Shown here piece after piece: positions 9,719 to 63,711 of a DNA stretch of 64,000 nucleotides. Numbering within the stretch: the first letter of the stretch is position 1; the number at the start of each line of letters is the position of its first letter. The DNA is taken from the NCBI RefSeq assembly GCF_054482525.1, contig NZ_CM137006.1; one strand, 5' to 3'. A program made the position numbers and the translations under genes. Under the pieces are notes generated by a model that saw only the letters and a program-made list of their open reading frames with translations, searched no databases and was not told where the DNA came from.

Positions 9719-9794
9719 GCGTATAACCCTCTAAATAGATCAGCGGGGAACGCAGGATCGCTGGCTCCCCGTGTAAAAAAAACAGCCCGAAACC

Positions 9795-10115
<321 letters not shown>

Positions 10116-10188
10116 TTATATGCTTATTTGTACTTTGAACCTTTCGATTCTGAAAAAATTGCGCACGATACGTCTCAATTGTACACAT

Positions 10189-11139
10189 TCAGCCTGCGAT
10201 AGCACCAACAACCTGTAATACTTCATCACGCGCCTGTTCTGGTTTTTCACTGTCAAGCCAGTGAACCCCTTCCCAACCACGCAGCCAGGTTATCTGCCGC
10301 TTCGCCAACTGTCTCGTGGCGCAAACACCTCGATAAACCATTTCATCGTATGAGATTTCGCCTTCAAGGTAAGACCACATCTGGCGATAACCCACGCAAC
10401 GAATGGAAGGCAAATCCGTATGCAAATCTCCTCGGGCAAAAAGCGCCCGGACTTCTGCTTCAAAACCTGAAGCCAACATCTGATGAAAACGCTGCTCAAT
10501 TCGTTGATGGAGCAGTTCACGGCTCGCCGGGGCGATGGCGAACTGATGCACCTGATACGGTAGAGCGTCTCCTGACGTTTGCGTCAGTTCCGTTAAAGTT
10601 TTACCCGAAATGAAAAAAACTTCCAGTGCCCGGGAAAGCCTTTGTGGATCATTTGGATGAATCCTTGCTGCCGCAACCGGATCGATCTCCTGAAGTTGAC
10701 GATGCAATGACTCCCAACCTTGCTCTGCCGCCTGTTGCTCAATTCTGGCCCGCACTTCCGGGTCTGCCGACGGTAGCGGCGACAACCCTTCCAGCAATGC
10801 CTTGAAATACAACATCGTACCGCCCACTAACAGTGGGATCCGCCCCGCTGCGGTGATATCGGCCATTTCCGCCAGCGCATCGCGGCGAAAATCAGCAGCC
10901 GAGTAAGCCTGCGACGGATCGCGAATATCCAGCAATCGGTGCGGCGCGGCGAGTAACTCTTCAGCGTTCGGCTTCGCCGTCCCGATATCCATCCCTTTGT
11001 AAATAAGGGCAGAATCAACGCTTATCAACTCTACTGGTAAAATTTTACGCAGCTCAATGGCTAACGCCGTTTTACCGGAGGCCGTCGGCCCCATCAAAAA
11101 AATCGCCTTAGGCAGGCTCGCCTTACTGATATCACTCAT
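10189..11139 (-). CDS. miaA: tRNA dimethylallyltransferase MiaA
   Basis: 316-aa ORF with P-loop GPTASGKT near the N-terminus. Confidence 0.95.
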
Positions 11140-17732: not shown

Positions 17733-17808
<76 letters not shown>

Positions 17809-17843
17809 TTGGGTGGTCTGTGCTTTACAGCACTTTCAAATTT

Positions 17844-17919
<76 letters not shown>

Positions 17920-17954
17920 TTGGGTGGTCTGTGCTTTATAGCACTTTCAAATTT

Positions 17955-18030
<76 letters not shown>

Positions 18031-30467: not shown

Positions 30468-32023
<1,556 letters not shown>

Positions 32024-32110
32024 AATTTCATCGGGTCCGAATTTTCGGACCTTTTCTGCGCTTTTCCTTGCTGTCATCTACACTTAGAAAAAACCAGTAA
32101 GGAAACATTT

Positions 32111-32644
32111 ATGCGCCTGCTCCCTCTCGTTGCCGCAGCGACAGCTGCATTTCTGGTCGTTGCCTGCAGTTCTCCTACGCCGCCCCGTGGCGTTACCGTA
32201 GTGAATAATTTCGATGCTAAACGCTATCTCGGTACCTGGTATGAGATTGCCCGTTTTGATCACCGCTTTGAACGTGGACTGGAAAAAGTCACCGCAACAT
32301 ACAGCCTGCGGGATGACGGCGGCCTGAATGTCATTAATAAAGGCTATAACCCTGACAGAGAAATGTGGCAACAGAGTGAAGGGAAAGCGTACTTTACCGG
32401 CGCACCAACTCGCGCTGCGCTGAAAGTGTCATTCTTTGGTCCTTTCTATGGCGGTTATAACGTTATTGCACTCGATCGGGAATACCGCCATGCGCTGGTT
32501 TGCGGCCCGGACCGCGACTACCTGTGGATACTCTCCCGCACGCCAACCATTTCTGACGAAGTGAAACAGGAGATGCTGGCAGTCGCGACCCGGGAAGGGT
32601 TTGATGTCAGTAAGTTTATTTGGGTACAACAGCCCGGTAGTTAG
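32111..32644 (+). CDS. blc: Outer-membrane lipocalin Blc
   Basis: 177-aa ORF; lipoprotein signal with lipobox LVVAC and lipocalin motif GTWYEIAR. Confidence 0.93.
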
Positions 32645-32958
32645 TGAGTGCTGAGTTTCAGACCAATAATCCCCAATACGATTAACGCCAGACTCGCCAG
32701 GCGCATCGGGTTAGCGGACTCGCCGAGCAGCACAATGCCGGTGATGGCCGCGCCGACTGCGCCAATACCCGTCCACACGGCATAAGCCGTCCCTACTGGT
32801 AACGATTTCATCGCCCAGGCAAGTAGCGCCATACTGACAATCATCGCCGTCACAGTAATAACACTTGGCGTCAAACGACTAAAGCCGTGGGTATATTTCA
32901 GGCCAACGGCCCATACCACTTCCAGCAGACCAGCAATAACTAAGATAATCCAGGACAT
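32641..32958 (-). CDS. sugE: SMR-family guanidinium exporter SugE (Gdx)
   Basis: ORF 32641..33021; conserved start [22 protein letters not shown] (105 aa); four-TM SMR protein. Confidence 0.92.
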
Positions 32959-32976
32959 ATCAGGCTCCGGAGAATT

Positions 32977-33019
32977 GGGGCCGTCCCCGGTGAAAAGAGG
33001 CGTTTGCAGGTCGTCCTGC
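32977..33019 (-). promoter_or_regulatory. Guanidine-II (mini-ykkC) riboswitch in the sugE leader
   Basis: On the minus strand: GCAGG-ACGA-CCTGC, a 17-nt linker, then GGGG-ACGG-CCCC; two short hairpins with ACGR tetraloops directly upstream of a GGAG Shine-Dalgarno and the sugE ATG. Confidence 0.8.
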
Positions 33020-33132
33020 AAAGCTGATGGTTGAACGGATATTTTGCCAGGTGGCAGGGGAATTTCAACTATTACCTTTGTGACTATCGCAAAAAAACAA
33101 ACGGCACGACATAACTGTCGTACCGTTATTGC

Positions 33133-33279
33133 TTACTGCTGCGCTTTCGTTGCTGCGCCAGAAATCGCGTTACCGCCATCAGAAATGTCTTCACCAACGC
33201 CACGCGTGGTGTTGCAGGCAGTTAATACTGTTGAAAGCACCAGAACAGAAAAGATCGCTGCAATTGTCTTCTTCACCAT
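33133..33279 (-). CDS. ecnB: Entericidin B lipoprotein (bacteriolytic toxin)
   Basis: 48-aa [51 protein letters not shown] translated by hand from the minus strand (not in the ORF track, below 60 aa); lipobox LTAC. Confidence 0.88.
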
Positions 33280-33389
33280 AACGTCTTCCTTTTAGGTAAT
33301 GTTATTTATGTTTGCCTATAGCAAATTAATAATAGACAACATCACCAAAAATGATGGAAATCTGATGATTTTTCGGAAGAGAAGAAAAA

Positions 33390-33515
33390 TTAGCTGGCAG
33401 CGCGGGAGATGGAATTACCGAGATGTTTAATGTCTTCACCAAAACCGCGAGCGGTATTACAGCCCGTGAGCAGCGCACTGGCAAGCAAAACAAGAACGAT
33501 AAGGCGTTTCATCAT
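33390..33515 (-). CDS. ecnA: Entericidin A lipoprotein (antidote to EcnB)
   Basis: 41-aa ORF MMKRLIVLVLLASALLTGCNTARGFGEDIKHLGNSISRAAS translated by hand from the minus strand; lipobox LTGC. Confidence 0.88.
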   Translation of the reverse strand: MMKRLIVLVLLASALLTGCNTARGFGEDIKHLGNSISRAAS

Positions 33516-33566
33516 CTCTGGCCTGAATAAGTGATGGTGCAGCCTGCAGGCCGCACCACAACCGCA

Positions 33567-34133
33567 TTACTTCACGCGAGAGACGTATTCACCAGAGCGG
33601 GTATCCACTTTGATGACTTCGCCGATCTGCACGAACAGCGGAACTTTAACCACAGCGCCAGTAGACAGGGTAGCTGGTTTGCCGCCAGTACCTGCGGTAT
33701 CACCTTTCAGGCCCGGATCGGTATCAACGATTTCCAGTTCAACGAAGTTCGGCGGAGTAACGGAGATCGGCTGACCATTCCACAGAGTTACGATACACTC
33801 TGCCTGATCCAGCAGCCATTTCGCGTTGTCGCCAATTGCTTTTGCATCAGCAGACAGCTGCTCGAAAGTTTCGTTGTTCATGAAGTGCCAGAACTCACCG
33901 TCGTTGTACAGGTAAGTCAGGTTCATATCGACAACATCAGCGCCTTCAGCGGAATCAGTAGATTTGAAGGTTTTTTCTACGCGAGTACCGGTCAGCAGAC
34001 GACGCAGTTTAACGCGAGCAAATGCCTGGCCTTTACCCGGTTTTACGAATTCACTCGCTTCAACCGCGTAAGGTTCGCCGTCTAACATGATTTTAAGACC
34101 AGCACGAAAATCGTTGCTATAGTACGTTGCCAT
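33567..34133 (-). CDS. efp: Elongation factor P
   Basis: 188-aa [54 protein letters not shown]. Confidence 0.96.
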
Positions 34134-34174
34134 AAGGCCCTCTGAAATTTGTTAATTGGTAGCTAAGCCACAAA

Positions 34175-35203
34175 ATGGCGCATATTGTAACCCTAAATAC
34201 CCCATCCAGAGAAGATTGGTTAACGCAACTTGCCGATGTTGTGACCGATCCTGATGAACTTCTGCGTCTTTTGAATATAGACGCGGACGAAAAACTGTTG
34301 GCCGGACGCAGCGCCAAAAAGCTTTTTGCCCTGCGTGTGCCCCGCTCATTTATCGATCGCATGGAGAAAGGCAATCCGAACGATCCGCTTTTGCGTCAGG
34401 TAATTACCTCGCAAGATGAGTTTGTCGTCGCGCCCGGATTCTCCACCGACCCGCTGGAAGAACAGCACAGCGTAGTGCCAGGTTTGTTGCATAAATACCA
34501 CAACCGGGCGCTTTTGCTGGTCAAAGGCGGCTGCGCGGTAAATTGCCGCTATTGCTTCCGTCGCCACTTCCCCTATGCCGAAAATCAGGGCAACAAGCGT
34601 AACTGGCAGACTGCACTTGAGTATGTTGCTGCGCATCCGGAACTGGACGAGATGATTTTCTCCGGCGGCGATCCGCTGATGGCGAAAGATCACGAGCTGG
34701 ACTGGTTGCTCACACAACTGGAAGCCATCCCGCATATCAAACGTCTGCGGATTCACAGCCGTCTGCCGATTGTGATCCCGGCACGCATCACAGATGCGCT
34801 GGTTGAACGCTTTTCACATTCTACGCTGCAAATCTTGCTGGTGAATCACATCAACCATGCCAATGAGGTAGATGAAACATTCCGTCAGGCGATGGCTAAG
34901 TTGCGCCGGGTAGGCGTTACTTTGCTGAACCAGAGCGTTCTGTTACGTGGTGTGAACGATAACGCGCAAACGCTGGCAAACCTGAGTAATGCGTTGTTCG
35001 ATGCCGGCGTGATGCCGTATTACCTGCATGTGCTCGATAAAGTACAGGGCGCGGCGCATTTTATGGTGAGTGATGACGAAGCACGGCAGATTATGCGTGA
35101 GTTGCTGACACTGGTGTCGGGATATCTGGTGCCTAAACTGGCGCGAGAAATTGGCGGCGAACCCAGCAAAACGCCGCTGGATCTCCAGCTACGCCAGCAG
35201 TAA
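34175..35203 (+). CDS. epmB: EF-P beta-lysylation protein EpmB (lysine 2,3-aminomutase-like radical SAM)
   Basis: 342-aa ORF with radical-SAM motif CAVNCRYCFRR; divergent from efp. Confidence 0.93.
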   Translation: MAHIVTLNTPSREDWLTQLADVVTDPDELLRLLNIDADEKLLAGRSAKKLFALRVPRSFIDRMEKGNPNDPLLRQVITSQDEFVVAPGFSTDPLEEQHSVVPGLLHKYHNRALLLVKGGCAVNCRYCFRRHFPYAENQGNKRNWQTALEYVAAHPELDEMIFSGGDPLMAKDHELDWLLTQLEAIPHIKRLRIHSRLPIVIPARITDALVERFSHSTLQILLVNHINHANEVDETFRQAMAKLRRVGVTLLNQSVLLRGVNDNAQTLANLSNALFDAGVMPYYLHVLDKVQGAAHFMVSDDEARQIMRELLTLVSGYLVPKLAREIGGEPSKTPLDLQLRQQ

Positions 35204-46888: not shown

Positions 46889-46964
46889 GCCCGGATAGCT
46901 CAGTCGGTAGAGCAGGGGATTGAAAATCCCCGTGTCCTTGGTTCGATTCCGAGTCCGGGCACCA
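46889..46964 (+). tRNA. pheU: tRNA-Phe (anticodon GAA)
   Basis: 76 nt GCCCGGATAGCTCAGTCGGTAGAGCAGGGGATTGAAAATCCCCGTGTCCTTGGTTCGATTCCGAGTCCGGGCACCA; copy name assumed from position after yjdC. Confidence 0.96.
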
Positions 46965-46973
46965 AATTCATAT

Positions 46974-47001
46974 AAACGGACCTCCACGGAGGTCCGTTTT
47001 T
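46974..47001 (+). terminator. Rho-independent terminator downstream of tRNA-Phe
   Basis: Hairpin aaacggacctccacggaggtccgttttt with a trailing T-run. Confidence 0.85.
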
Positions 47002-47161
47002 CGTTTCAGAACGCCACGATTTAAGCGTTCTGCCTACAAATCAATTCTACCGAACTCAACCAGATTCCCCCCACATCAACCCCATTGTGTGGGTATAATT
47101 GCGGGTATACCCCAGTTCGACAGAATTTGTACCCTCTTTAACGCATTCAGAAGGCTGAACT

Positions 47162-48427
47162 ATGGCACTGACTGACGCAAAAATCCGGGCTGCAAAGCCC
47201 ACTGACAAGGCTTATAAACTCACTGACGGGGCTGGCATGTTCCTGCTGGTACATCCTAATGGTTCCCGTTACTGGCGTCTCCGTTATCGTATTCTGGGTA
47301 AGGAGAAGACTCTGGCACTTGGTGTGTATCCAGAAGTTTCTCTCTCCGAAGCTCGTACAAAACGGGATGAGGCCCGAAAACTGATTTCGGAGGGGATTGA
47401 CCCTTGCGAACAGAAAAGAGCTAAAAAAGTAGTCCCTGATTTACAGCTCTCTTTTGAACATATTGCACGACGCTGGCATGCCAGTAATAAACAATGGGCA
47501 CAATCACACAGCGATAAAGTACTCAAAAGCCTCGAAACACACGTTTTCCCCTTTATCGGCAACCGGGATATCACAACACTCAATACCCCGGATCTGCTTA
47601 TCCCTGTTCGTGCTGCAGAAGCTAAACAAATTTATGAAATCGCCAGTCGTCTGCAGCAAAGAATATCTGCCGTAATGCGTTATGCCGTACAGTCTGGCAT
47701 CATCAGATATAATCCTGCTCTGGATATGGCTGGCGCATTGACTACGGTACAACGCCAGCATCGCCCCGCTCTTGATCTTTCACGTCTGCCTGAACTTCTG
47801 TCGCGTATTAACAGTTATAAAGGTCAGCCTGTCACCCGGCTTGCCGTTATGCTGAATTTACTGGTTTTTATTCGTTCCAGTGAACTCAGATACGCCCGCT
47901 GGTCTGAAATTGATATTGACAATGCCATGTGGACTATTCCAGCCGAACGCAAACCTCTGCCAGGGGTAAAATTCTCACACCGGGGCTCCAAGATGCGAAC
48001 ACCACATCTTGTGCCACTCAGCAAACAGGCTGTAGCCATACTGACAGAACTTCAGACATGGGCTGGTGAAAATGGTCTGATCTTTACGGGAGCACATGAC
48101 CCGCGTAAACCAATCAGTGAAAATACCGTAAATAAGGCCCTCAGAGTGATGGGGTATGACACAACCAAGGAAGTCTGTGGCCATGGATTCCGGGCGATGG
48201 CGTGCAGTGCATTGATTGAATCCGGCTTATGGTCAAGAGATGCGGTTGAACGTCAGATGAGTCATCAGGAGCGCAACGGAGTACGTGCCGCGTATATTCA
48301 TAAAGCAGAACATCTGGAAGAACGTCGGCTTATGCTGCAATGGTGGGCAGATTTTCTGGATGCAAACAGGGAGGAGTGTATCAGTCCGTTTGAATATGCA
48401 AAAGTTAACAATCCACTGAAAAGGTGA
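47162..48427 (+). CDS. int: P4-family tyrosine recombinase (phage-type integrase)
   Basis: 421-aa ORF MALTDAKIRAAKPTDKAYKLTDGAGMFLLVHPNGSRYWRLRYR (typical P4-Int N-terminus); C-terminal catalytic region with HxxR and the conserved tyrosine region. Confidence 0.92.
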   Translation: MALTDAKIRAAKPTDKAYKLTDGAGMFLLVHPNGSRYWRLRYRILGKEKTLALGVYPEVSLSEARTKRDEARKLISEGIDPCEQKRAKKVVPDLQLSFEHIARRWHASNKQWAQSHSDKVLKSLETHVFPFIGNRDITTLNTPDLLIPVRAAEAKQIYEIASRLQQRISAVMRYAVQSGIIRYNPALDMAGALTTVQRQHRPALDLSRLPELLSRINSYKGQPVTRLAVMLNLLVFIRSSELRYARWSEIDIDNAMWTIPAERKPLPGVKFSHRGSKMRTPHLVPLSKQAVAILTELQTWAGENGLIFTGAHDPRKPISENTVNKALRVMGYDTTKEVCGHGFRAMACSALIESGLWSRDAVERQMSHQERNGVRAAYIHKAEHLEERRLMLQWWADFLDANREECISPFEYAKVNNPLKR

Positions 48428-48652
48428 CTGAACGCCATTTACACACATGCTCTTCCTCTTAAGGGGAAGAGCACCCGCCTCAATCAATTTCTTTTTTATG
48501 CCGGCGGAACCATCAGCCAGGCTGAGGTTCTCATTCAATAACTCAACGTCTTACCACAGAACAGAATTCACTGTATTATCATGGGCAACGTTAATCCCGG
48601 ACAATAAAAGGACACCGATGCCAGGCATCACAATTTTTATAGCCTGCAGATT

Positions 48653-49726
48653 ATGGTCCATCCTTTTTTACAGGTTCAGAATATGACTGGCAAATTACGC
48701 TTTGAAGTGAACGATAACCAGGGCTGTTTCATATTTTCGGAAACCTGGTTTGGCTCGTTGCTGGATGAGTTTGAAGAACTGATTGATGCATACGATGCGG
48801 ATGAAATCAGCGAAACAAGTTACATCAACAAACTCAGGCGCCTTGCCCGACAGGAGAATGACTTTATTGATGTACACGCTCACTTGGCATACGTATTTCT
48901 GGAGCAGAATGCCCCGCGTAAGGCGCTGAATGCTGCCCTTAAAGGGCTGGCAGTTGGCAATCGTCTTATCCCTGAAGGTTTCAGTGGCAGAATCATCTGG
49001 ATACATCCTGACAACCGACCTTTTCTTCGTGCCCTCTATGCGGCAATCCTGGCAAATGCACATTTACGGCGTCATCAGGATGCCATCATGCTCATTGAAA
49101 AAATACTGGATTACAATCCCGAAGATAATCATGGTGCACGCTGGCTACTGGGACCGGAACTGTTACGCACTGGCGCTCATGAACAGGCACGCCATATACT
49201 GCAGGAACATGCAGATGAATTTTCACCTTACTGGTATGAACTCGGCCTTCTGCATTTTCTTAATGGGGAACTGGTAAAAGCTGCAACTGCATTTCGTCGC
49301 GGCTTTGCGGCAAATACTTACATCGCAGAAATACTGTGCGGAAATCTGCATCCATTTCCACTTGCTGTATGGCATAACTTTTCAGGCGGTCCGGATACTG
49401 CCGAAGATTATTATGCCACATACCACCCGTTATGGGGGCAATATCCGGAAGCATTGCTGTTTGTAAACTGGCTCTATAATCATTCCTCTGTGCTGCATGA
49501 ACGGGCAGAAATCATTAAATGCGCCGAAATGCTGATGCAGGAAGATGATTTCGAAATATGCGAAAGTATTTTAAGACAGCAGGAGAAGTTGCGTGAAAGA
49601 ATTGATGAGACGCTTTCTGAGAAAATTGTACAGAAATGCAGAAATATGAATGGTGAATATGTCTGGCCCTGGATATTGCCGTTTTCAGCGGCAGGCATGA
49701 AACATACTGGCATACAGTATCAGTAG
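48653..49726 (+). CDS. Hypothetical protein, helical/TPR-like repeats, function unknown
   Basis: 357-aa ORF (alternative start 48683 MTGKLRFEV); TPR-like helical repeat segments (for example WYELGLLHFLNGELVKAATAFRRGF); no catalytic motif recognised. Confidence 0.6.
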   Translation: MVHPFLQVQNMTGKLRFEVNDNQGCFIFSETWFGSLLDEFEELIDAYDADEISETSYINKLRRLARQENDFIDVHAHLAYVFLEQNAPRKALNAALKGLAVGNRLIPEGFSGRIIWIHPDNRPFLRALYAAILANAHLRRHQDAIMLIEKILDYNPEDNHGARWLLGPELLRTGAHEQARHILQEHADEFSPYWYELGLLHFLNGELVKAATAFRRGFAANTYIAEILCGNLHPFPLAVWHNFSGGPDTAEDYYATYHPLWGQYPEALLFVNWLYNHSSVLHERAEIIKCAEMLMQEDDFEICESILRQQEKLRERIDETLSEKIVQKCRNMNGEYVWPWILPFSAAGMKHTGIQYQ

Positions 49727-49797
49727 ATATTGCATTAGTGTATCCTGCACACAAGTAATAATTTATCCACCAATAATAACACTGTTAATGTCCCCTT

Positions 49798-49840
49798 CCC
49801 CTGGTTGTCAGCCAGGGGTTATCTTCTGAATATTTCTTTT
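49798..49840 (+). terminator. Putative intrinsic terminator after the 357-aa ORF
   Basis: Hairpin cccctgg-ttgtcag-ccagggg followed by a T-rich tract (ttatcttctgaatatttctttt). Confidence 0.55.
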
Positions 49841-50085
49841 GAAAAGGATAACACAGTAAATTATTTTTATGAATTATCCCATGGACTCATTAACACCCTT
49901 TCATAATGCTTTATTGTCAAACACGTTATGGCTGACATCAAAAAAAACCGGATTTCCTCTGCCAGCGGGTAATCACCTCCCCGGTGTTTTCGGTTGGTCT
50001 GGTTACTCCTGTCTGGTTATGAGCAAGATAATTGCTATAAACAGTGGAAAACTCATCGTACATAATCTGGTGATGAACATTACGC

Positions 50086-51588
50086 TTATTTTCCCTTGAC
50101 CGGAAGAATCAGAGGCTGCGGTTTCAGACTGTCTGCCGGTACATTCCTCTCTCCGTTAAAAACCATAACGGGTTCATTATCTTCGTCTGTCAGCAGATTG
50201 AATGGCGGTATATTTTCAGTACGAATGCCGGTCAGCCACTGAAAAATACCTGCGAAATGACGGGCACTGATTTTTCTGCTGACGGACTGATGAGACGTGA
50301 TGTCACTGGCGGTAATAATCAGGGGAACGCTGTAGCCTCCCTGCACATGACCATCATGATGAACAGGATTAGCACTGTCGCTGACCGACAGACCATGGTC
50401 AGAAAAGTAAAGCATGGCAAAATGACGGGAATGCCGGCGAAGGATACCATCAAGCTGCCCGAGAAAGTTATCCAGTTTACTGATGCTGGCGAGGTAACAG
50501 GCAATCTTCCGGGGGAACTGCTCCTGGTAATTATTCGGCCAGGAGTGAAGCCGGTCACACGGGTTCGGATGAGACCCCATCATGTGCAGGAATATCACCT
50601 TCGGAGAGGATTTATCCGCCAGCGCACGTTCTGTTTCCTGTAACAACAACATGTCATCCGTTTTACGGGAAGCGAAGCTGCCTTTCTTGAGGAAAACGGT
50701 ATGCTCCGCATCAGAAGCAATAACAGAGATGCGTGTGTCATGCTCTCCCAGTTTTCCCTGATTGGATATCCACCATGTGCTGTATCCTGCTTTTGCTGCC
50801 AGCGCCACCACGTTGTTGCCGGAATCAGGGTTCTGCTCATAGTCATAAATCAGTGTCCGGCTCAGGGAAGGCACAGTACTGGCTGCTGCCGATGTATAGC
50901 CGTCAATAAATAAACCGGGAGCAGTATTCAGCCACGGTGTGGTTGGCACGGGATAGCCATATACCGACATATAATCCCTGCGCACACTCTCACCAGTGAC
51001 GATAACAATCGTGTCATACAACGGTACACCCGGCAGGATTTTCCAGTTGTCAGCCCCGTGCTGATTCAGTTGTTTATAACGCTGCATTTCACGCAATGTG
51101 TCAGTTGTCCCCACAACAGTTCCTTTAACCATCCGCAACGGCCAGCTGTTTACTGAGCATAATACGAACAGCAGCAGTGCCAGCCAGTTACGGTGACCAC
51201 GGCGGTGTGTTCGCCAGAAAATCACCATGAATACCTGAATCGCGGCACTGACCAGAAAATGATAAACAGGAATCATCCCGGTAAACTCCGCTGCCTCATC
51301 AGTTGTGGTCTGCAGCAACGCGACAATAAAACTGTTGTTGATTTTACCGTACGTCATACCGGCAGGCGCATACAGTGCACAACAGAACAGAAATAACAGC
51401 GCTGTAATGGATGTGAGGGTATTTCTGTGTGCAAGGAGCAGAAGAAGGAACAGCAGCAACACATTCCCGGTGGCATTCTTCTCAGTGTATCCGCATGCAA
51501 TTGTGGTTATTGCAGAAACGACAAAAAAGAATAAAAACAATAAAATCCGGGGGGTGTTACCCGGACAAAACAGTTTTCTGATATTCAT
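50086..51588 (-). CDS. Phosphoethanolamine-transferase-like membrane enzyme (sulfatase/alkaline-phosphatase superfamily, EptA/OpgE-like)
   Basis: 500-aa ORF; N-terminal multi-TM region, then a soluble domain with transferase-like motifs (TGESVRRDYMSVYGY and HMMGSHPNP); AT-rich. Confidence 0.7.
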   Translation of the reverse strand: MNIRKLFCPGNTPRILLFLFFFVVSAITTIACGYTEKNATGNVLLLFLLLLLAHRNTLTSITALLFLFCCALYAPAGMTYGKINNSFIVALLQTTTDEAAEFTGMIPVYHFLVSAAIQVFMVIFWRTHRRGHRNWLALLLFVLCSVNSWPLRMVKGTVVGTTDTLREMQRYKQLNQHGADNWKILPGVPLYDTIVIVTGESVRRDYMSVYGYPVPTTPWLNTAPGLFIDGYTSAAASTVPSLSRTLIYDYEQNPDSGNNVVALAAKAGYSTWWISNQGKLGEHDTRISVIASDAEHTVFLKKGSFASRKTDDMLLLQETERALADKSSPKVIFLHMMGSHPNPCDRLHSWPNNYQEQFPRKIACYLASISKLDNFLGQLDGILRRHSRHFAMLYFSDHGLSVSDSANPVHHDGHVQGGYSVPLIITASDITSHQSVSRKISARHFAGIFQWLTGIRTENIPPFNLLTDEDNEPVMVFNGERNVPADSLKPQPLILPVKGK

Positions 51589-51647
51589 CGGAGTATATCG
51601 ACAACATTATTATGAAGAGAACAGGATAATAAAAATCAGAAATTATC

Positions 51648-51692
51648 TGTAAAACAGATAAAAGACAACCCTGCAGTAATAGACTGCAGGGT
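51648..51692 (-). terminator. Putative intrinsic terminator after the outer-membrane protein gene
   Basis: Perfect hairpin accctgcag-taataga-ctgcagggt with a T-run following it on the minus strand. Confidence 0.6.
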
Positions 51693-51769
51693 ATTTCTGT
51701 TTAATTGCAGAAGATATGCAATTATCTTAATTACAGAATATACGCAATTATCGTTCAGGAGCAGTGTCG

Positions 51770-52510
51770 TCAGAAGTTATAAGTCATACCAAGCATGATG
51801 TCATGACTTTTAACATCAACTTCTGACTTATATTTATCGCCCCACTCGTCCTTGTAACTCACACTGCTGTCACCTGCATCAAGATAGCGATAGCTGAGGT
51901 CCAGAGCGATATCCGGGGTTACGTCATAGCGGACACCCGCGCCAAGGCTCCATGCGAAGTTGTCAGCAGAGCCTGAACGTGACAACGATTCGCGACCACT
52001 GCTTCCGTACTCATAATCCCAGGTACTGATACCGGTTGTTTTCTGGTGAATTCTGGCGTAGCCAATCCCTGCGGATACCCATGGTGTGAATGCGCTGTCA
52101 TTCCGGAAGTCATAGTACGCATTCAGCATTAGTGTGTTGACTGACACCTCATTCTTCAGGTCATCACGCCAGTAACCACCTGACCAGCTGTCTTTATCTA
52201 CGTTATACTTCGAATCAGCTTTTCCACGAGCGTAAAACTCCAGTTCTGTTCGAACCGGAATACTGAACTGCGGATAAAAATCATAACCAGCCGCGATACC
52301 ACCACTGAATACCGTATCATGGTCATCGCCGCCTTTATACTTTGACGTTTCTTCCTCATCTCCTGACAGGAAATGCTGGTCTGAAAGTGACACCACAGAG
52401 GTACCGGCTTTACCGGTCAGATAAAAACCGCTTTTACCTTCCTCAGCACCTGCATTTGCTGCAAATACACAGGCTGTGGCCACCACTGAAACAGCAAAAA
52501 CCTTTTTCAT
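51770..52510 (-). CDS. Outer-membrane beta-barrel protein of the Hek/Hra/Tia (opacity-adhesin/invasin-like) family
   Basis: ORF 51770..52525; start MKKVFAVSVVATACVFAANAGA (signal peptide); alternating amphipathic beta-strand pattern; C-terminal barrel signature ending in Phe (LGMTYNF). Confidence 0.65.
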   Translation of the reverse strand: MKKVFAVSVVATACVFAANAGAEEGKSGFYLTGKAGTSVVSLSDQHFLSGDEEETSKYKGGDDHDTVFSGGIAAGYDFYPQFSIPVRTELEFYARGKADSKYNVDKDSWSGGYWRDDLKNEVSVNTLMLNAYYDFRNDSAFTPWVSAGIGYARIHQKTTGISTWDYEYGSSGRESLSRSGSADNFAWSLGAGVRYDVTPDIALDLSYRYLDAGDSSVSYKDEWGDKYKSEVDVKSHDIMLGMTYNF

Positions 52511-52727
52511 TTCAATTATCTCCATTATTGTATCATCATTTTAATATATATTTTTAATATTTAAAAACCGGACTAAAGGCAGCCTCAACACTCCACACTA
52601 CGGAAGCCAGACTTTTACTCTACACAAAATAAATATATCTTCTCAGTGAGGACGTGAACGCCTGTCTGAAATTATGTGAATACAACCTCCCCAGAATACA
52701 AACAGGCAGGGGCACTGGAGTAACCGA

Positions 52728-53096
52728 TCACAATACTTCTGCCTTTTTATATTTTACCGATAATCTCCGTTTAATATAGTTCTTACCGATTTCATAATCG
52801 GGGTTCCATGTAGATAAATTATGAACACCTATTGCTACTGCACTCGCCACTCCCAGAATTACGGTTGGTGACCATAAAGAACCAGCTAAAGCTGTACTCC
52901 TGTACTCAGTATATACACGACAACTTAATTTCGTTTTCTCTATTTCATGCTCCACTCTTTTTACCGTTTCACTAACATCGGAAACATTTTCGATCACAAA
53001 ACTCTTACGTTCATAAATAAGCTTGCTTAATGTATTTATATCTAAAAATTTCGCATCAAAAGAATCAATCTGTACTGTTTTTTCTTGTGCTGACAT
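52728..53096 (-). CDS. Hypothetical protein with a single C-terminal TM helix
   Basis: 122-aa ORF in an AT-rich segment; hydrophobic stretch ALAGSLWSPTVILGVASAVAIGV; no recognisable domain. Confidence 0.45.
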   Translation of the reverse strand: MSAQEKTVQIDSFDAKFLDINTLSKLIYERKSFVIENVSDVSETVKRVEHEIEKTKLSCRVYTEYRSTALAGSLWSPTVILGVASAVAIGVHNLSTWNPDYEIGKNYIKRRLSVKYKKAEVL

Positions 53097-54404
53097 CTTC
53101 TTTTCCTGGCTGGTATGGCAAGTGACGGAGACAAGAGAAACGTTTTAAGCTCAGTTATCTCCGCCATCACTTTCCACGAATGACAAGTAATTTTGCCTAT
53201 TTTAAAACCATGCAAAAGGCAGGGTAAAAGGAGAAAATTCGATCGAATCGATCGACAAAATCGATCATACATGATGAAGATTTTTTATCGAATCCATAAA
53301 AATAGTGACAGCTAACCGGCGTTGCAGGAACAGTCAGAAATGGGCGTTTGGGAAAGAGCCATAGCACTACGTCGTCGCTGACATAGAGGAACTGTGCTTT
53401 GTTGATAAGATCCTTTATACGGCAACCAATCCACTGGACAAAAGATGAACTACGTAATCACCGGGTTCTCACTGACGAAATACAGAAGTTAATGACACAA
53501 CTGTGCCATGTACCTTGTACAACAGCGGTGGAAAGCTCTCAGAACAATGGAATTGCAGAAAGGTGTTAAAACGATGAAAGCCTTCATACCCAAATCGAAT
53601 GTAAGAACGGCAGTAAAGACTGAATTGCGTAACCTTGCATTAGCTCGAGTATTACACTGCATAGTGTGCAGGGTTATCTCCCATCGAGAAAATATCGGCG
53701 CCAGCGAATAACGTCACCTTAGATGTAGCAGTTGCCAAATAGTGACTCAAGGGCGGGCTTACCGCATACACTGACACTTAGCGGATCGACAGAATATTAT
53801 TAGCAGATCATCCCTGAACGCAACGTAATTATCGTAATAAAGGCTTTTTCTGGCTACCAGGAAGATCTGACATGGCTCTGCTCTGGAACCAGGCCGCAGG
53901 AAGCATCAATCTGGAGTTTATCAGCTACTGGAATTCCGGTGTATTGGCAGCCCCTGATAATCACCTGACCCACGAAGAGCGCTCTGCTTTGCAGAAACTC
54001 TGGGGCGGTTTGGAGACAGGAGATGCCATTTAACGATTATAGGACGTTCTGATGAAGTCCATGATTTTACCTCCGCCTTAATTAACTGTTTTCTTTCTGA
54101 AGAAGAGATTGTCTGGTGGCAATCAGGTGGCATTTTCCCGGATCCCTGGCCCGCTAATATATCCCGGCTGAACTGACGATTAACGCGATATTGCAAATAT
54201 GGCATCTGAATCGATCATGATTTGGCGGCATCCATCTCCGTTCACAGTTTGGCATGCTTCCGATCATTGATTGGCATCCAGCCAGTCACTCCGGGAATTA
54301 ACTCTTTTCACCGCAGTCTCCATTGCCGTGTTTAAACCAATGGAGACGTCAATGTCCAAAAAGAGAATATCCAGGAGCACTATGGATACCTGTTTTAAGA
54401 TCCT

Positions 54405-54623
54405 TCAGCTCAAGTTCGACCAGAAGCTGGCTAACCGTTGTATCGGACTTGCAAAACACCAATGGGGATTGATCTCTATTTTGCGACACAGACGCATTAT
54501 CAATACATCGATGGTGCGATCAAATACCTCAGTGCTCTCACCGTGGATCAAATCCAGCAATTGCTCACAGATTAAGACTCGTCGGGAGTTTTGAGCCAAC
54601 GCCAGCAGTAAACCCATATTCAC
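54405..54623 (-). pseudogene. Fragment of a winged-helix (OmpR/ToxR-type) DNA-binding domain; probably a gene remnant
   Basis: 72-aa ORF containing ...EQLLDLIHGESTEVFDRTIDVLIMRLCRKIEINP, matching the recognition-helix and wing pattern of OmpR-family output domains; no receiver domain or full-length ORF around it. Confidence 0.4.
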
Positions 54624-54954
54624 CTTGAGTGAAATCTACAGGCTGTTGATGAGCATCAACCAGCACGTAACGGTCCGGGATCAAGTGTCCAGCCGTTAAA
54701 AAAACCACTCTACTACCCTGCTCGACCTAAGCCTCGGCGTTCAGCCGCCTGAACGGGTATGGCAAGGGTGAAAAGAAACAGCATCCCCAAAGTACCGACC
54801 AGACGACAGGATGATGCTGGAACAGAAAGCATACGCACCTCCCTTAGAATTAGACAGTGCGTACAGGATACGTAAGACAGGGTGACGGGGCGGCGATAAA
54901 CCCCGAACACATGGCAGAGTGTGACCACCGGATAATGCGCTCTGAGTTTCCCGA

Positions 54955-55269
<315 letters not shown>

Positions 55270-55285
55270 TTATGTTGTGGTGAGA

Positions 55286-55328
<43 letters not shown>

Positions 55329-55329
55329 A

Positions 55330-55700
55330 AACGACATTCGTGCCGGATGCACTGGAGCAGGCAGTATGGGCCGTCGTCCATCTGGCACCATCCATCACAG
55401 TAATAAAGGTTCTCAGTATGTATCGCTGGCCTACATGCAGCGACTTAAGGAAGCCGGATTACTGGTATCAACAGGGAGTCCTGGCGACTCGTATGACAAC
55501 GCGATGGAGGAGAGCATCAATGGTCTTTACAAAACGGAGGTAATACACCGTAAGAGCTGGAAAAAACCGGACAGAAGTGAAACTGGCCACACTAACGTGG
55601 GTGGACTGGTATAACAATCGACGATTACTGGAAAGGCTGGGCCATATTCCTCCGACAGAAACAGAAAAAGCTTATTATGCCTCCATCGGAAACAATGATC
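55330..55700 (+). pseudogene. IS3-family transposase orfB C-terminal fragment (frameshifted), opposite orientation to the orfA remnant
   Basis: Translation HHSNKGSQYVSLAYMQRLKEAGLLVSTGSPGDSYDNAMEESINGLYKTE, then in another frame LTWVDWYNNRRLLERLGHIPPTETEKAYYAS; DDE integrase-core C-terminus. Confidence 0.7.
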
Positions 55701-56034
55701 TGGCAGCCTGAGTTCACAGATAAAATACTCTCCAGGAAAACCGGGATGGTTCACCGGAGTGTTAAAGTGTGGCTTAAAATTATGCAGTTGCCGCCTGGCG
55801 GTCAAGACTGTCGCTACAGGATAAATCGCTCCGGTGAAACACAACTGCGCAAATCACCATACTGTGCATACGTATTACCGTGAAGGAGATCGGTGAGTTA
55901 CGGGGTTATTGGGTGATCTCCTTCCATGAAAATACGCAGAGCACTTAAATCGCTGCTGGCGCGCACTAAAAACGTGTCAACCTGGTTCCATTAGCGTAAC
56001 ATCAAAGCGAGCACTTAAGAAGCAGAAGAGCAAC

Positions 56035-56751
56035 CTACAGGTTAACCCGAACCATATTAAATTCATAATCTTTTAACTGCTCAGACCTGATCACCAGAAA
56101 TCTGCCATTACCTGACTTAAATGATTTTGATAAAACAAGTGTGGTATCATATCTGGCTAAAACATAATACCACCCGTCATTATAATTCATCATTTCATAT
56201 TCTTTCTTGAATTGCGGCTTGTAAAAGCCAACAGAAAATGAAAAAACCCAGAAATATATGACAAAGCCGACAAGACATATTTCAGAAATATGTTTCTTTA
56301 CAAAGATACTCTCTGAAAAACATGATGCTGAAACACGGTGGCCACAGGTTCTTATAAGAAAAACAAGAATAAGGGATACCGCTACTGATAAGGTAAGAAG
56401 TTTTAATGCCAGATGATTCTTTAGCACAGAGAACTCAATCACCACCGGAACAAACAATAAGAATGAGGCAAGAAAAAGTCTGAAAAAGCTCAATTCATGC
56501 ATGCTTGCTTTGTTTTTTATTCCAAGAAAGAAAAGTACTCCCGCGCCCCATGAGAGAAACAGGATGACCATTATAGTAATTGCATGAAACAGGCTTCTTG
56601 CAACATCGTCAATACCTGCACTGACAACCCACCATGGGAAACCATAATAAAAAGAGACACCCCACCCGTAAAAATATGCACTTCCCCATCCGAGACATCC
56701 CATATAAGCCACAAATAAGGAAGAATTTTTGAGCAACGCGTTGCTGTTCAT
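56035..56751 (-). CDS. Hypothetical polytopic membrane protein, function unknown
   Basis: 238-aa ORF in a strongly AT-rich segment; about five predicted TM helices rich in aromatic residues, then a roughly 60-aa soluble C-terminus; no recognisable family. Confidence 0.5.
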   Translation of the reverse strand: MNSNALLKNSSLFVAYMGCLGWGSAYFYGWGVSFYYGFPWWVVSAGIDDVARSLFHAITIMVILFLSWGAGVLFFLGIKNKASMHELSFFRLFLASFLLFVPVVIEFSVLKNHLALKLLTLSVAVSLILVFLIRTCGHRVSASCFSESIFVKKHISEICLVGFVIYFWVFSFSVGFYKPQFKKEYEMMNYNDGWYYVLARYDTTLVLSKSFKSGNGRFLVIRSEQLKDYEFNMVRVNL

Positions 56752-57243
56752 TTTTACCCCTGTAAAACTGGAATAAGTAACAGAATAGCATTGACATTGT
56801 CAAGATGAACAGCATGCATTGTAACAGTCTGCAGCTTATGTTCTCCGTGGATAATTATTCTTATTTCATGGTGATTTTTGTTATATTTTAAAATGCATAT
56901 CTCACCATTTAGTTTTTTATATCACAAAAACATAGTGATGCAATCATACACACCTGCCTCTATCGTACAGAGAAAACGGGCAATTATTTGTATTATTCCT
57001 TCATAACGACTTCAGTATACAGGATGACCGCAACCACGCTCCTTCTCCTGCCCGGGCGAAGTGCCTGGTTCAGACAATGACATTAACTGGCTGAAATTTT
57101 CGACGCGGTACAGGTCTCCCTGCTTTGAAAGGTGCCTGGCGCTGCAATTTTTTATCATTTGTTTTTGTATCCGGCAAAACACGTCTGCAAGAATCATTAT
57201 TCTCTTGCCTGAAGCTATCCGGCATCCTCAGGCATTTCACGCT

Positions 57244-57795
57244 TTATGAGCTGACATCATCAAGATGCGCCAGTAATTTTTTATTAATGACTTCAAACAG
57301 TTCCTGTTCATCATGGGTCAGATAATCCCAGATTTCTTTCAGATACATGCTTTGTGCAAGAGTGAGCCTCTGAATAAAAAACATACCTTCAGATGTCAGA
57401 CTGATTTTTTTAGCACGGCGATCCTCCCTGCTATCCATCCTTTTTACATACCCGGCTTTTTCTAAAAAATCTGTAATGCGGGTAATATTAGTTCTGGTAA
57501 ACTGCAGTTTCTGGCTTATCTCTGAAGGTGACAGACAATGACTCTCCGCTGTGAATAATGTGGTGAGAACCATGTACACTGAGTGATTTATTCCATACGC
57601 CCCCAGAAATTCAGATATATTATCCTGCATCCTTTTATTTGCGCGAATACAGAGTTGCATCAACAAATGTTCCTGAAAGGGATATGCGGGGTCTTTGTTT
57701 TTTTGGTGTCTGATTATTTTTTCTAATGTGTCTGTGTTATTCATTTCATTATTCTCCATATTACTGAAACACACTGTCTGTGTACAAGCGCGCAT
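57244..57795 (-). CDS. MarR-family regulator of the PapX/SfaX/FocX type (fimbria-linked motility repressor)
   Basis: 183-aa ORF (true start may be internal, for example MENNEMNNTD); MarR winged-helix region ...TRTNITRITDFLEKAGYVKRMDSREDRRAKKISLT; located at the distal end of the fimbrial operon. Confidence 0.7.
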   Translation of the reverse strand: MRACTQTVCFSNMENNEMNNTDTLEKIIRHQKNKDPAYPFQEHLLMQLCIRANKRMQDNISEFLGAYGINHSVYMVLTTLFTAESHCLSPSEISQKLQFTRTNITRITDFLEKAGYVKRMDSREDRRAKKISLTSEGMFFIQRLTLAQSMYLKEIWDYLTHDEQELFEVINKKLLAHLDDVSS

Positions 57796-57941
57796 CAGTC
57801 ATCCGGTAAACTTCGACTTTCCACTACAATTTATTCCTGCCTGATTTCTGTATAACTGAGATATCCCGGCACAGCGGACAGATAAATTTCCTCAGATAAA
57901 AGAACATAAATGCTGGCTGCTGGCAAGTCTGTGAAAAAGGA

Positions 57942-58682
57942 TTATCCATACTGCTCAGTAATCGCGGATAATTCATCAGCTCCCACACGCCTGTAGAGCC
58001 ATCCCTGACAGCCCTGGACATTCATGTCTCTGGCAATACGGAACAACGCTTCATTTTCAACACCTTCAAGTATTACGCCCCGGTTATGACAGGCAACAGT
58101 GTCTGCCACAGCATGGAGAAGCGGCATTGCACTCCTGTTTTTCAGGGCATAATGAAAAAACTCATGACTTATTTTTACCCGTTCAAACATCCCGGACAGT
58201 CCCCACATTAAGCCTGCATTTCCTGAGCCGAAATCATCCAGCCAGAGGGTGAAACGTTCTGACAAAAAACGTAACAGGGGGTCATCACCGGGTTTTAACG
58301 CCACTGCCGGAAAGTCCTCACTGACCTCAAGCCTGATATGTGTTCCCGGCCGCCCCGGGATGCCATGTTTTCTCAGATACAGGGCTACCACCCGGGAAAT
58401 ATTGACACTCAGCATTATTTTCTTCTGCAGACACCATTTATGAAGCGTTTCAGCAGTCTTCAGCTGACTGATGAGTATTTTGTACTGAATATCCGGAGGC
58501 GCACTTCTGAAAAAAACAGATGCGCAGATTTTCCTCCCGTCTTTTGCTGAACGGATATCCGAGAGCATTTCAAAAGCAAATATTTTCCCGGTCTGATTCC
58601 ATACAGGCTCAAAAACCGGTGAGAGGATATATTCTGTTCTGCCTGATTTCACCTCCAGTATACTGTTAACTGCCCCTGACAT
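57942..58682 (-). CDS. Stand-alone EAL-domain protein (SfaY/FocY-like putative c-di-GMP phosphodiesterase)
   Basis: 246-aa ORF with EAL-domain motifs (EML in place of EAL, LWLDDFGSG, ILEGVENE, QGCQGW); between the adhesin gene and the MarR gene. Confidence 0.7.
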   Translation of the reverse strand: MSGAVNSILEVKSGRTEYILSPVFEPVWNQTGKIFAFEMLSDIRSAKDGRKICASVFFRSAPPDIQYKILISQLKTAETLHKWCLQKKIMLSVNISRVVALYLRKHGIPGRPGTHIRLEVSEDFPAVALKPGDDPLLRFLSERFTLWLDDFGSGNAGLMWGLSGMFERVKISHEFFHYALKNRSAMPLLHAVADTVACHNRGVILEGVENEALFRIARDMNVQGCQGWLYRRVGADELSAITEQYG

Positions 58683-58985
58683 TACTCCTCCGGAAATATG
58701 AGCCCCTCCCGACCAGAAGGTCTGGCTGGATAAGCGCAGTTCTTCTGATTTGATTTTTAAACCCTCAGATTTACCATTATCTTTATGATTACTGACAACG
58801 CTCAGAACCAGATATACGGCTCATACTGGTTCTGTTTATCTTTGACAAAGACCATATGACAGACTCGTTCCGTCACAACACCGGAAACAATACTATTATC
58901 AGCTATTTTTCTCCACAAACAGTGATACATTAAATGAAAAACTGGATATAAAGAGCAGTAATATCATTACCGCCACAACTGCATT

Positions 58986-59954
58986 CTAGTTGTAGCTAAA
59001 AGTCACATTTATCACTGACTGGACAGCACCGGGCGTCGGACTTGCCTGACCGGTCAGAGCATAAGAGGCCTTCAGCCCCAGACTCACAGGAGAGCTACCT
59101 ACCTGTCCCAGAGACCTCGGTTGTCCGGCCGGAACCGGCCCCGCGTTGTCCGACAACTGTACACCCACACCGCCGGCCCCTGATGTTGCCGTATTTGCGA
59201 ATACAGTATTACCACTTCCTGTTACAGAACCTGACAGGGTATAGCTGACCGACTGTGTCTGGTCGCAACGTACAGTAAGAGGGACTGTTACCGGCCCTCC
59301 GGGATAGGACGGAAGGTCAACTTTGACATTGTTCGATGAGACCCTGCATGTACCTGTCTGGATATAGACATCATTCGTTGCATAGAAACGCCAGGTGAAA
59401 TTTCTCTCCCCTGCCTCCTGCCCCATGGTGGAAAACTTATTAACATAAACTGTGGCCACTAATTCTCCGGCATGTATCAGTTTCCCGAAAACGCCCGGCT
59501 CAGGATAAAGGTACATTTTTGCCGGGAAAGGTTTCCATACACCATATTGCCAGTAAGCTTCTGTTGGCTTTGTGTCTTGCTGCAGCGGTAACGTCTGACT
59601 ATACCCAGAAAGCCTGTTTGTAAAGTCCAGCCTTCCGTATGTTTTAGCATCTAATGAAGGAGAAAAACCGGTTCCCTGTCTGACCCTGAGATAGTCATAG
59701 TTCTGACCAGAGGCATCTTCATTCTGACATAACACCAGTTGATTTAAATCCAGAACTGTAATGGCTTTATCATACTGAACTGTTGGGGAAAGAGTGATAT
59801 TGAAGCGACTGTCTCCAGACTGAAAAGTCTGCCCTGTCTGGTTATTTCTGCACAACAGTGCAAACGATGGCTGGGAATATGCCATTATAAATGTGAATAA
59901 AACACAGCCCTCGAGGACGGTGCTTTTCTTAAAGAGGGGATAATATTTACGCAT
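58986..59954 (-). CDS. Fimbrial tip adhesin, two-domain FimH/SfaH/FocH-like
   Basis: ORF 58986..60002 (start chosen at MRKYYPLFKK..., uncertain); the C-terminal pilin domain is closely similar in pattern to FimH (...GVGVQL...VSLGL...NVTFSYN); the N-terminal lectin domain is divergent. Confidence 0.8.
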   Translation of the reverse strand: MRKYYPLFKKSTVLEGCVLFTFIMAYSQPSFALLCRNNQTGQTFQSGDSRFNITLSPTVQYDKAITVLDLNQLVLCQNEDASGQNYDYLRVRQGTGFSPSLDAKTYGRLDFTNRLSGYSQTLPLQQDTKPTEAYWQYGVWKPFPAKMYLYPEPGVFGKLIHAGELVATVYVNKFSTMGQEAGERNFTWRFYATNDVYIQTGTCRVSSNNVKVDLPSYPGGPVTVPLTVRCDQTQSVSYTLSGSVTGSGNTVFANTATSGAGGVGVQLSDNAGPVPAGQPRSLGQVGSSPVSLGLKASYALTGQASPTPGAVQSVINVTFSYN

Positions 59955-60450
59955 AGGTATAGGTGACAGTAATTTGTGAATTAATACTTCCCGCACCAGC
60001 ATTACCTTTGCTTACGGCACGGACTTTAAGATTGAATGTCGCCTGCCCATTGCTCACTGTAACAACTTTTGTTGAACCAACTTTCAAGGGGGTATTACCA
60101 TTACCTTGTTCCTGTAGCTCAACCATGATATTAGTAGCATCCCCTGTATTTCTGTAATAATTTGTATTTTCTGCGGTTCCACCAAAGGTGGCAGTAACAT
60201 TGTTTACATTCTGACAATTCGTCAATGTCAACGAAAAATTTTTCCACTGAGAGGTGCTGTTGGCTGCTATCAGGTCAGAAGTGTAAGCGTTATCCAAAAC
60301 AACGGTGGCGTTTGGGTTTCCTCCATTACCAATGGTACAGGTACGTGGCAATACCCTCCCTGTAACAGTAATCGTCGTATCCACTGCCTGTGCTGAAAAT
60401 GCAATACAGTTAATAAGACCGGTGGCCAATATAATAGCTTTCAGTTTCAT
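59947..60450 (-). CDS. Fimbrial minor subunit (SfaS/FocG/FimG-like)
   Basis: 167-aa ORF with a signal peptide, pilin fold and C-terminal beta-strand ending ITVTYTYA. Confidence 0.8.
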   Translation of the reverse strand: MKLKAIILATGLINCIAFSAQAVDTTITVTGRVLPRTCTIGNGGNPNATVVLDNAYTSDLIAANSTSQWKNFSLTLTNCQNVNNVTATFGGTAENTNYYRNTGDATNIMVELQEQGNGNTPLKVGSTKVVTVSNGQATFNLKVRAVSKGNAGAGSINSQITVTYTYA

Positions 60451-60471
60451 CTGTTTTCCTCTGTGTTATAT

Positions 60472-60999: not shown

Positions 61000-61011
61000 T
61001 TCCCTGCCTCT

Positions 61012-63567: not shown

Positions 63568-63711
63568 TCTGTTATTACCCCCGCCAGCAGAGCCGGTCAG
63601 TGATTTATCAGACAGGAGTTGTCCGCCATCTCCGGAAAACATGTCAGCCCCCACACTGAGCGAAAAAATAAAATCAGCAGCCAAACACAACCAGTACCAG
63701 AAATAACTGAG

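Follow-up and report, generated by a model that had tools for sequence, protein, structure and literature searches.

The two small genes located at positions 33133 to 33515 of the window (the whole stretch of 64,000 nt analysed here, from contig NZ_CM137006.1 of RefSeq assembly GCF_054482525.1) almost certainly constitute the chromosomal entericidin locus ecnAB of Escherichia coli. The locus is already known, having been described in 1998; all RefSeq E. coli genomes have it annotated, curated HMMs exist for it, and the copy in the window matches the known one in every tested respect. We hold with high confidence the explanation taken as a whole, i.e. an ecnAB locus in which EcnB would be a dose-dependent envelope-perturbing lipopeptide and EcnA its paralogous competitor or modulator.

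Gene order and family membership

The ORF listing (at least 20 aa, minus strand) reproduces exactly the limits that the initial annotation had given for both small genes. The genes form a tandem pair on one strand, flanked by efp and sugE/gdx, just as had been proposed:

33567..34133, minus strand: efp, upstream of ecnA
33515..33390, minus strand: ecnA, 41 aa, MMKRLIVLVLLASALLTGCNTARGFGEDIKHLGNSISRAAS (ORF listing)
33279..33133, minus strand: ecnB, 48 aa (ORF listing)
32641..32958, minus strand: sugE/gdx, downstream of ecnB (annotated gene of 105 aa)

The distance from the efp stop codon to ecnA is 51 nt, the ecnA–ecnB spacer has 110 nt (33280..33389) and ecnB is separated from sugE by 175 nt; beyond sugE/gdx there are a convergent blc gene and then ampC. 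A 126-aa TTG-initiated ORF listed for sugE was rejected as an artefact, the annotated gene of 105 aa being located at 32958..32641. The leader of sugE/gdx carries a guanidine-II (mini-ykkC) riboswitch at 32976..33022 on the minus strand (Rfam RF01068, 50.4 bits versus a gathering score of 32), and a sigma-70-like promoter is situated upstream of this riboswitch (33068..33041).

Short ORFs are frequent in this region (48 ORFs of at least 20 aa within 3 kb), so that the presence of an ORF alone is no proof of a gene. We argued the status of the two genes from evidence independent of ORF presence, namely family scores, substitution pattern and recurrence of the pair.

Both proteins cover the full 20-position Pfam model PF08085 (Entericidin EcnA/B) with scores above the gathering score of 23.3 (26.5 bits for EcnA and 30.2 bits for EcnB). 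The equivalog models of NCBIfam tell the two paralogues apart. EcnA scored 112.7 bits against NF007319 (‘lipoprotein antitoxin entericidin A’, cut-off 86, positions 1–41 of 41) and only 43.3 bits against NF007487, the model of its paralogue; EcnB scored 121.9 bits against NF007487 (‘lipoprotein toxin entericidin B’, cut-off 94, positions 1–48 of 48) and only 46.5 bits against NF007319. The similarity to entericidins, which the initial annotation had left to be checked, is strong, with both equivalog and Pfam cut-offs passed.

Several RefSeq E. coli chromosomes with annotated ecnB, ecnA and efp match the 551 bp at 33050..33600 at 100% identity; of 5426 complete E. coli genomes 5425 contain this ecnAB region, and the counterparts in K-12 MG1655 are b4410 (ecnA) and b4411 (ecnB). 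Curated-model scores, the RefSeq annotation of identical DNA and synteny all agree, and the original ecnA/ecnB call was correct. Three of the 5430 matches to the region are plasmids rather than chromosomes, and in one chromosome, NZ_CM132268.1, ecnA is split into two places. As judged by its sequence, the window is a part of an E. coli chromosome: it is collinear with strain CFSAN061763 at ∼99% from position 377 to position 47078.

Lipoboxes and mature peptides

In each precursor a K/R-containing n-region and a hydrophobic h-region precede the lipobox (MMKR...LLTG-C19 in EcnA and MVKK...VLTA-C22 in EcnB). The signal peptide of EcnA comprises residues 1–18, with lipobox LTGC, Cys19 and a mature peptide of 23 aa; that of EcnB comprises residues 1–21, with lipobox LTAC, Cys22 and a mature peptide of 27 aa. 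The lipobox Cys claimed for both peptides is borne out by sequence pattern, as the signal peptidase II motif [LVI][ASTVI][GAS]C is present near residue 20 in each; the score of EcnA against Pfam LPAM_1 is below threshold (17.7 versus 20). The two precursors share 23 identical residues, mostly in the C-N-T-x-R-G-x-G-E-D-I core.

Lipoproteins mature by the established Lgt, LspA and Lnt pathway and are sorted by the Lol system. By analogy with this established biology, the three enzymes would turn the precursors into N-terminally triacylated lipopeptides of 23 and 27 residues. In both EcnA and EcnB the lipobox Cys is followed by Asn; with Asn and not Asp at position +2, the Lol system would deliver both lipopeptides to the outer membrane. 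Lipidation of EcnB at C22 is part of the UniProt curation (P0ADB7) quoted in PMC12529367, where no intact EcnB was found in top-down mass spectrometry, a result explained by its lipid.

Amphipathic helices, also suggested for both peptides, were only partly borne out. The best 11-residue hydrophobic moment of mature EcnA is higher than that of 98.75% of shuffles (1.25% reach it), while the best moment of mature EcnB, which is Gly-rich, is not distinguishable from shuffles (8.75% reach it). Net charges of the mature peptides are +1 (EcnA) and −1 (EcnB). The mature peptides, being neutral or anionic and Gly-rich, and with the EcnB moment not above shuffles, are unlike typical lytic amphipathic peptides.

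Expression signals of the two genes

The following elements were located in or next to the non-coding parts of the locus:

33558..33524, minus strand: GC-rich hairpin without U-tract, in the 51-nt efp–ecnA spacer
33336..33326, minus strand: sigma-S-type extended −10 element of the ecnB promoter, TCTATTATTAA, in the ecnA–ecnB spacer, 46 nt upstream of the ecnB ATG
33314..33322, minus strand: −10-like element TGCTATAGG, just downstream of the ecnB promoter
33248..33278, minus strand: predicted MicA pairing site, from the ecnB start codon to codon 10
33127..33100, minus strand: strong intrinsic terminator downstream of ecnB, with a stem of 12 bp and a loop of 4 nt, then TGTTTTTTTG

The Shine-Dalgarno sequence of ecnB, AAAGGAA (33286..33292, minus strand), is located 6 nt before the ATG and is strong, its duplex with the anti-Shine-Dalgarno sequence having −5.6 kcal/mol; AAAGGAAGA at this site is conserved in an alignment of 45 distinct enterobacterial spacers. 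The Shine-Dalgarno sequence of ecnA is weak (duplex of −2.5 kcal/mol).

A sigma-70 promoter scan returned the sugE promoter only, with no site upstream of ecnA or ecnB. The ecnB promoter escapes such a scan because it is of the sigma-S type. There is one sharply conserved block, TTGTCTATGCTTAA, in the 45 distinct enterobacterial ecnA–ecnB spacers, and the TCTATTATTAA element of the window, with core hexamer TATTAT (33334..33329), aligns with it. Published consensus sequences of the sigma-S extended −10 element are KCTAYRCTTAA (PMC5650638) and TCTATACTTAA (PMC3367168). Compared with KCTAYRCTTAA, 19 of the 45 spacers have no mismatches, 12 have one and 14 have two, while shuffled spacers mostly have 3–4. 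The promoter known as ecnB P is used in vitro by sigma-38 RNA polymerase and poorly by the sigma-70 enzyme, overlaps an OmpR repressor site and has a −10-like motif that causes a sigma-38-dependent pause close to the promoter (PMC5389655).

The 110-nt spacer carries a separate promoter of the sigma-S type for ecnB, the location being predicted here and the promoter activity being known from PMC5389655. The sigma-38-dependent pause signal is probably TGCTATAGG, a part of which (GCTATAC) is conserved in other genera; we assigned the published motif to these coordinates by inference. The initial annotation had named ribosome-binding sites and promoters as a test of both genes: ecnB has them (a strong Shine-Dalgarno sequence and the sigma-38 promoter described in PMC5389655), while for ecnA the Shine-Dalgarno sequence is weak and the scan gave no promoter-like site. 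The signals for co-expression of the pair differ, both in the strength of the Shine-Dalgarno duplex and in the separate promoter of ecnB, which points away from a stoichiometric antidote.

The promoter scan found no promoter-like site between efp and ecnA. Given this result for the 51-nt spacer, transcription of ecnA probably comes from upstream, either through the efp–ecnA hairpin or from within efp. The hairpin itself (−22.6 kcal/mol, z = −2.15) may act as a partial terminator or as a stabiliser of the efp transcript. At the other end of the pair the ecnB terminator, also found by a terminator scan, folds with −21.5 kcal/mol (z = −6.4).

Expression of ecnB is induced by sigma-S in stationary phase and repressed by OmpR (PMC5389655); ecnB mRNA is also repressed in E. 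coli by the sRNA MicA (PMC3551931), which is sigma-E-dependent. In agreement with the latter, RNAduplex paired nt 1–28 of the K-12 MicA with the ecnB leader and 5′ coding region at −24.2 kcal/mol, and none of 500 shuffles was as good.

RNA of the ecnA–ecnB spacer (33280..33389) has a minimum free energy of −24.7 kcal/mol (z = −3.75 versus shuffles), and in this fold CUCUUCC, located just after the ecnA stop codon, pairs with the ecnB Shine-Dalgarno sequence. Sequestration of the Shine-Dalgarno sequence, which would keep ecnB silent on read-through transcripts, was considered and rejected as unsupported: in 39 enterobacterial spacers the complementarity exceeded that of shuffles only marginally (mean z of −0.92), and RNAalifold produced no consensus structure. 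The pairing of CUCUUCC is probably incidental, and the conserved pyrimidine/A-tract block of the spacer is more likely to be promoter-upstream DNA. An Rfam scan of 32000..35000 (E ≤ 1) found no RNA family in the ecn region, the riboswitch of sugE being the only hit.

Comparison with K-12 and the two ecnA alleles

The ecnAB locus of E. coli K-12 has the same order as the window, efp-ecnA-ecnB-gdx(sugE)-blc-ampC. The two loci have spacer, promoter block, Shine-Dalgarno sequence and terminator in common, apart from a few non-coding substitutions. The EcnB proteins are identical and the ecnB genes differ by one synonymous change, while EcnA is identical at 40 of 41 positions, the exception being residue 14 in the signal peptide (Thr in K-12, Ala in the window). 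Since mature EcnA is identical to that of K-12, no functional difference of the allele is expected.

At the DNA level ecnA of the window differs from the K-12 gene at 9 of 126 nt: eight synonymous third-position changes and the change producing T14A. At least eight of nine changes would fall on third positions by chance with P of about 0.001. In seven of the nine the window has T and K-12 has C. The divergence is concentrated in the gene: the two ecnA alleles are ∼7% apart over 126 nt and the flanks are only 1–2% diverged (ecnB 1/147, the two spacers 3/161 and the 3′ end of efp 7/300).

The two alleles are sharply separated: among E. coli genomes 634 have an ecnA at least 99% identical to that of the window, 4742 have one of the K-12 type (90–95% identical to that of the window) and only 45 are in between; the window-type allele is thus carried by about 634 of 5424 genomes. 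Outgroup Escherichia mostly have the K-12 state at the variable sites, and so the window allele looks derived or imported. Gene conversion from ecnB to ecnA, also considered as the source of this allele, is not clearly supported. Of the nine sites, the window allele agrees with ecnB at four and the K-12 allele also at four, and the identity to ecnB is the same for both alleles (69/123), leaving no net conversion signal; the four matches of the window allele are contiguous (an identical run of 14 nt).

Entericidin pairs in other genera

A pattern scan with one genome per species returned 120 loci. Besides the window, a tandem pair of entericidin-like lipoprotein ORFs is present in 65 loci, in Enterobacterales, Halomonadaceae and a few other lineages; a single ecn-like ORF was found in 45 of the 120 loci, some of which are truncated. 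The 132 family members from tandem pairs are nearly uniform after the lipobox Cys, with Asn at +2 in 130 and Thr at +3 in 131. The order efp-ecnA-ecnB-sugE is conserved across Enterobacterales. In Enterobacteriaceae the mean identity to the mature peptides of the window is 0.91 for EcnB and 0.78 for EcnA, and in 35 of 45 loci mature EcnB is better conserved than its partner.

Citrobacter, Enterobacter, Kosakonia and Cedecea share with the window the synteny efp-ecnA-ecnB-sugE, the lipoboxes, the Cys-Asn-Thr start of the mature peptides and the sigma-S extended −10 element in the spacer. They differ in the ecnB–sugE interval, which in these genera and their relatives (the Citrobacter werkmanii locus and about 30 others) has about 890–930 nt compared with 175 nt in E. 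coli, the window included. The interval of Citrobacter werkmanii contains a divergent gene of a LuxR/GerE-type regulator that is missing in E. coli and resembles RcsA below threshold:

9775..10374 of the C. werkmanii locus (L007), plus strand: LuxR/GerE-type regulator, 199 aa

We take this gene to be, probably, ecnR. In E. coli, Klebsiella and a few other genera the interval is only 140–270 nt long and has no regulator gene.

Other features of the window

A genomic island begins directly after tRNA-Phe (pheU, 46889..46964) and lies within 46889..64000. CFSAN061763 lacks it and has cadC after pheU. Judged by the homologous DNA of urine isolate 998 (99.9% identity), the island carries a tyrosine integrase, a TPR protein, a phosphoethanolamine transferase, IS remnants, papX and sfaY, along with the F1C/S fimbrial genes focH, focG, sfaG, sfaF and sfaE. 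At least 80% of the island is present in only 46 of 5426 genomes. The island suggests that the window originated from an extraintestinal pathogenic lineage. Amid the IS and integrase remnants of the island there is the Hfq-binding sRNA isrC (55151..55273, minus strand), identified by a full-length match to Rfam RF01387 with 93.2 bits. Elsewhere, three tRNA-Gly(GCC) genes (glyV, glyX and glyY) are arranged in tandem at 17733..18030 on the minus strand; their spacing differs from that in CFSAN061763, indicating an indel of about 290 nt in the region of the array.

Toxin and antidote, or lipopeptides of the envelope

The initial annotation described the pair as a toxin/antidote module. This description repeats a database label, and its physiological validity has been questioned (PMC7296081, PMC12529367, PMC3686733). 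The label originated because overproduced EcnB lyses cells and co-expressed EcnA relieves the effect: by the accounts in PMC7296081 and 10.1101/505081, Bishop et al. (1998, J Mol Biol 280:583) observed bacteriolysis on overproduction of EcnB, lessened by ecnA in cis. According to the same accounts and PMC5389655, they proposed that toxin and antidote form a programmed-death module with sigma-S as inducer and EnvZ/OmpR as repressor. The label rests mainly on this one 1998 overexpression study.

Several later observations bear on the proposal. A deletion of ecnA exists in the Keio collection and is viable (PMC7296081); thus, loss of the ‘antidote’ is not lethal. EcnB, among the E. coli small proteins most readily detected by mass spectrometry, accumulates to about 70,000 copies per cell in minimal medium, and the cells do not lyse (PMC12529367). 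Shotgun proteomics quantified EcnB but did not detect EcnA in the same samples (PMC3686733), which fits the weak Shine-Dalgarno sequence of ecnA and is hard to square with stoichiometric neutralisation. Inhibition of LolCDE induces ecnB without ecnA (PMC5105897).

The pair can be compared with classical toxin-antitoxin modules, such as plasmid addiction systems and the type V ghoST pair (present in the reference strain, in the homologous region beyond the pheU island). In both cases, according to the literature, small genes are adjacent, and one product damages the membrane when overexpressed while the other counteracts it. The entericidins differ from the classical modules in that the two products are paralogous to one another and are both exported as lipoproteins, a separate stress promoter serves the ‘toxin’, cells tolerate a deletion of the antidote gene and no labile-antitoxin mechanism is known (PMC7296081). 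A physiological toxin-antidote role of EcnA and EcnB is, in our estimate, evenly balanced between true and false.

The main rival to a toxin-antidote mechanism is that EcnA and EcnB are ordinary, small, abundant, stress-induced lipoproteins of the outer membrane or of vesicles, with a structural, adhesive or envelope-homeostasis function; lysis would then be a dosage effect, an artefact of overload of the lipoprotein or envelope pathway, and the two proteins would have no native toxin-antidote relation. The viable ecnA knockout, the high copy number of EcnB, the failure to detect EcnA next to EcnB (PMC3686733) and the neutral or anionic mature peptides all fit this explanation. So do reports on homologues: EcnB homologues occur in outer-membrane vesicles of several Gram-negative species, and many proteobacteria have an EcnB-like gene without ecnA (PMC7296081), as is consistent with the single-ORF loci of our scan (45 of 120, some truncated). 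Atu8019 of Agrobacterium tumefaciens, a small lipoprotein of the same Pfam family located in the outer membrane and vesicles, has no EcnA partner; it is exposed on the surface, acts in the docking of vesicles and neither lyses cells nor forms pores (PMC7296081). On the other hand, the explanation has to account for the reports that overproduced EcnB causes lysis and that ecnA in cis relieves it (Bishop et al. 1998, as cited in PMC7296081 and 10.1101/505081), and for the reported bacteriolytic action of an Enterobacter EcnB homologue on Flavobacterium (Schubiger 2015, as cited in PMC7296081). Tandem paralogues conserved in Enterobacterales and Halomonadaceae also suggest joint action. We regard this rival as a serious one, though on balance we lean against it.

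Somewhat more doubtful is a compound version of it, in which the textbook label would be wrong, EcnB would have a structural role as a lipopeptide of the outer membrane or its vesicles, abundant and induced by sigma-S, EcnA would be its low-abundance tuner with no function in death or addiction, and, in addition, the dimorphism of ecnA would be a result of localised recombination or of selection on ecnA expression.

It was also conceivable that EcnB is mainly an exported antibacterial lipopeptide used against competitors, with vesicle or bacteriocin-like delivery, and that EcnA is the immunity factor of the producer. A 3-kDa EcnB homologue secreted by Enterobacter sp. C6-6 is reported to lyse Flavobacterium psychrophilum, and outer-membrane vesicles contain EcnB homologues (both from the summary in PMC7296081). 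Such a system would be compatible with the gene order, in which an immunity-like gene comes first and is followed by an effector under a stress promoter of its own. However, no dedicated export or processing gene adjoins the pair in the window, and vesicles with Atu8019 gave no inhibition of other bacteria (PMC7296081). Moreover, bacteriocin-immunity pairs usually diversify, whereas this locus belongs to the core of E. coli (5425 of 5426 genomes) and its mature EcnB hardly varies from genus to genus (mean identity 0.91). We consider this role improbable.

The view that the two small ORFs are chance open frames in intergenic DNA rather than genes can be dismissed: common as short ORFs are in these 3 kb, the equivalog scores are well beyond the curated cut-offs, the substitutions are biased to synonymous ones, the peptides are conserved across genera and EcnB has been seen by mass spectrometry (PMC12529367), so that for ecnB the view had already been refuted by proteomics.

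The preferred reading remains that of EcnB perturbing the envelope in a dose-dependent manner, with EcnA as a competitor or modulator that would not belong to a classical addiction module.

Implications

The locus may serve as a positive control, showing that genuine genes of fewer than 50 codons can be recovered by eye. Its one scientifically live point is the annotation that it carries in databases, as a toxin/antidote pair with a function in programmed cell death, which is weakly supported.
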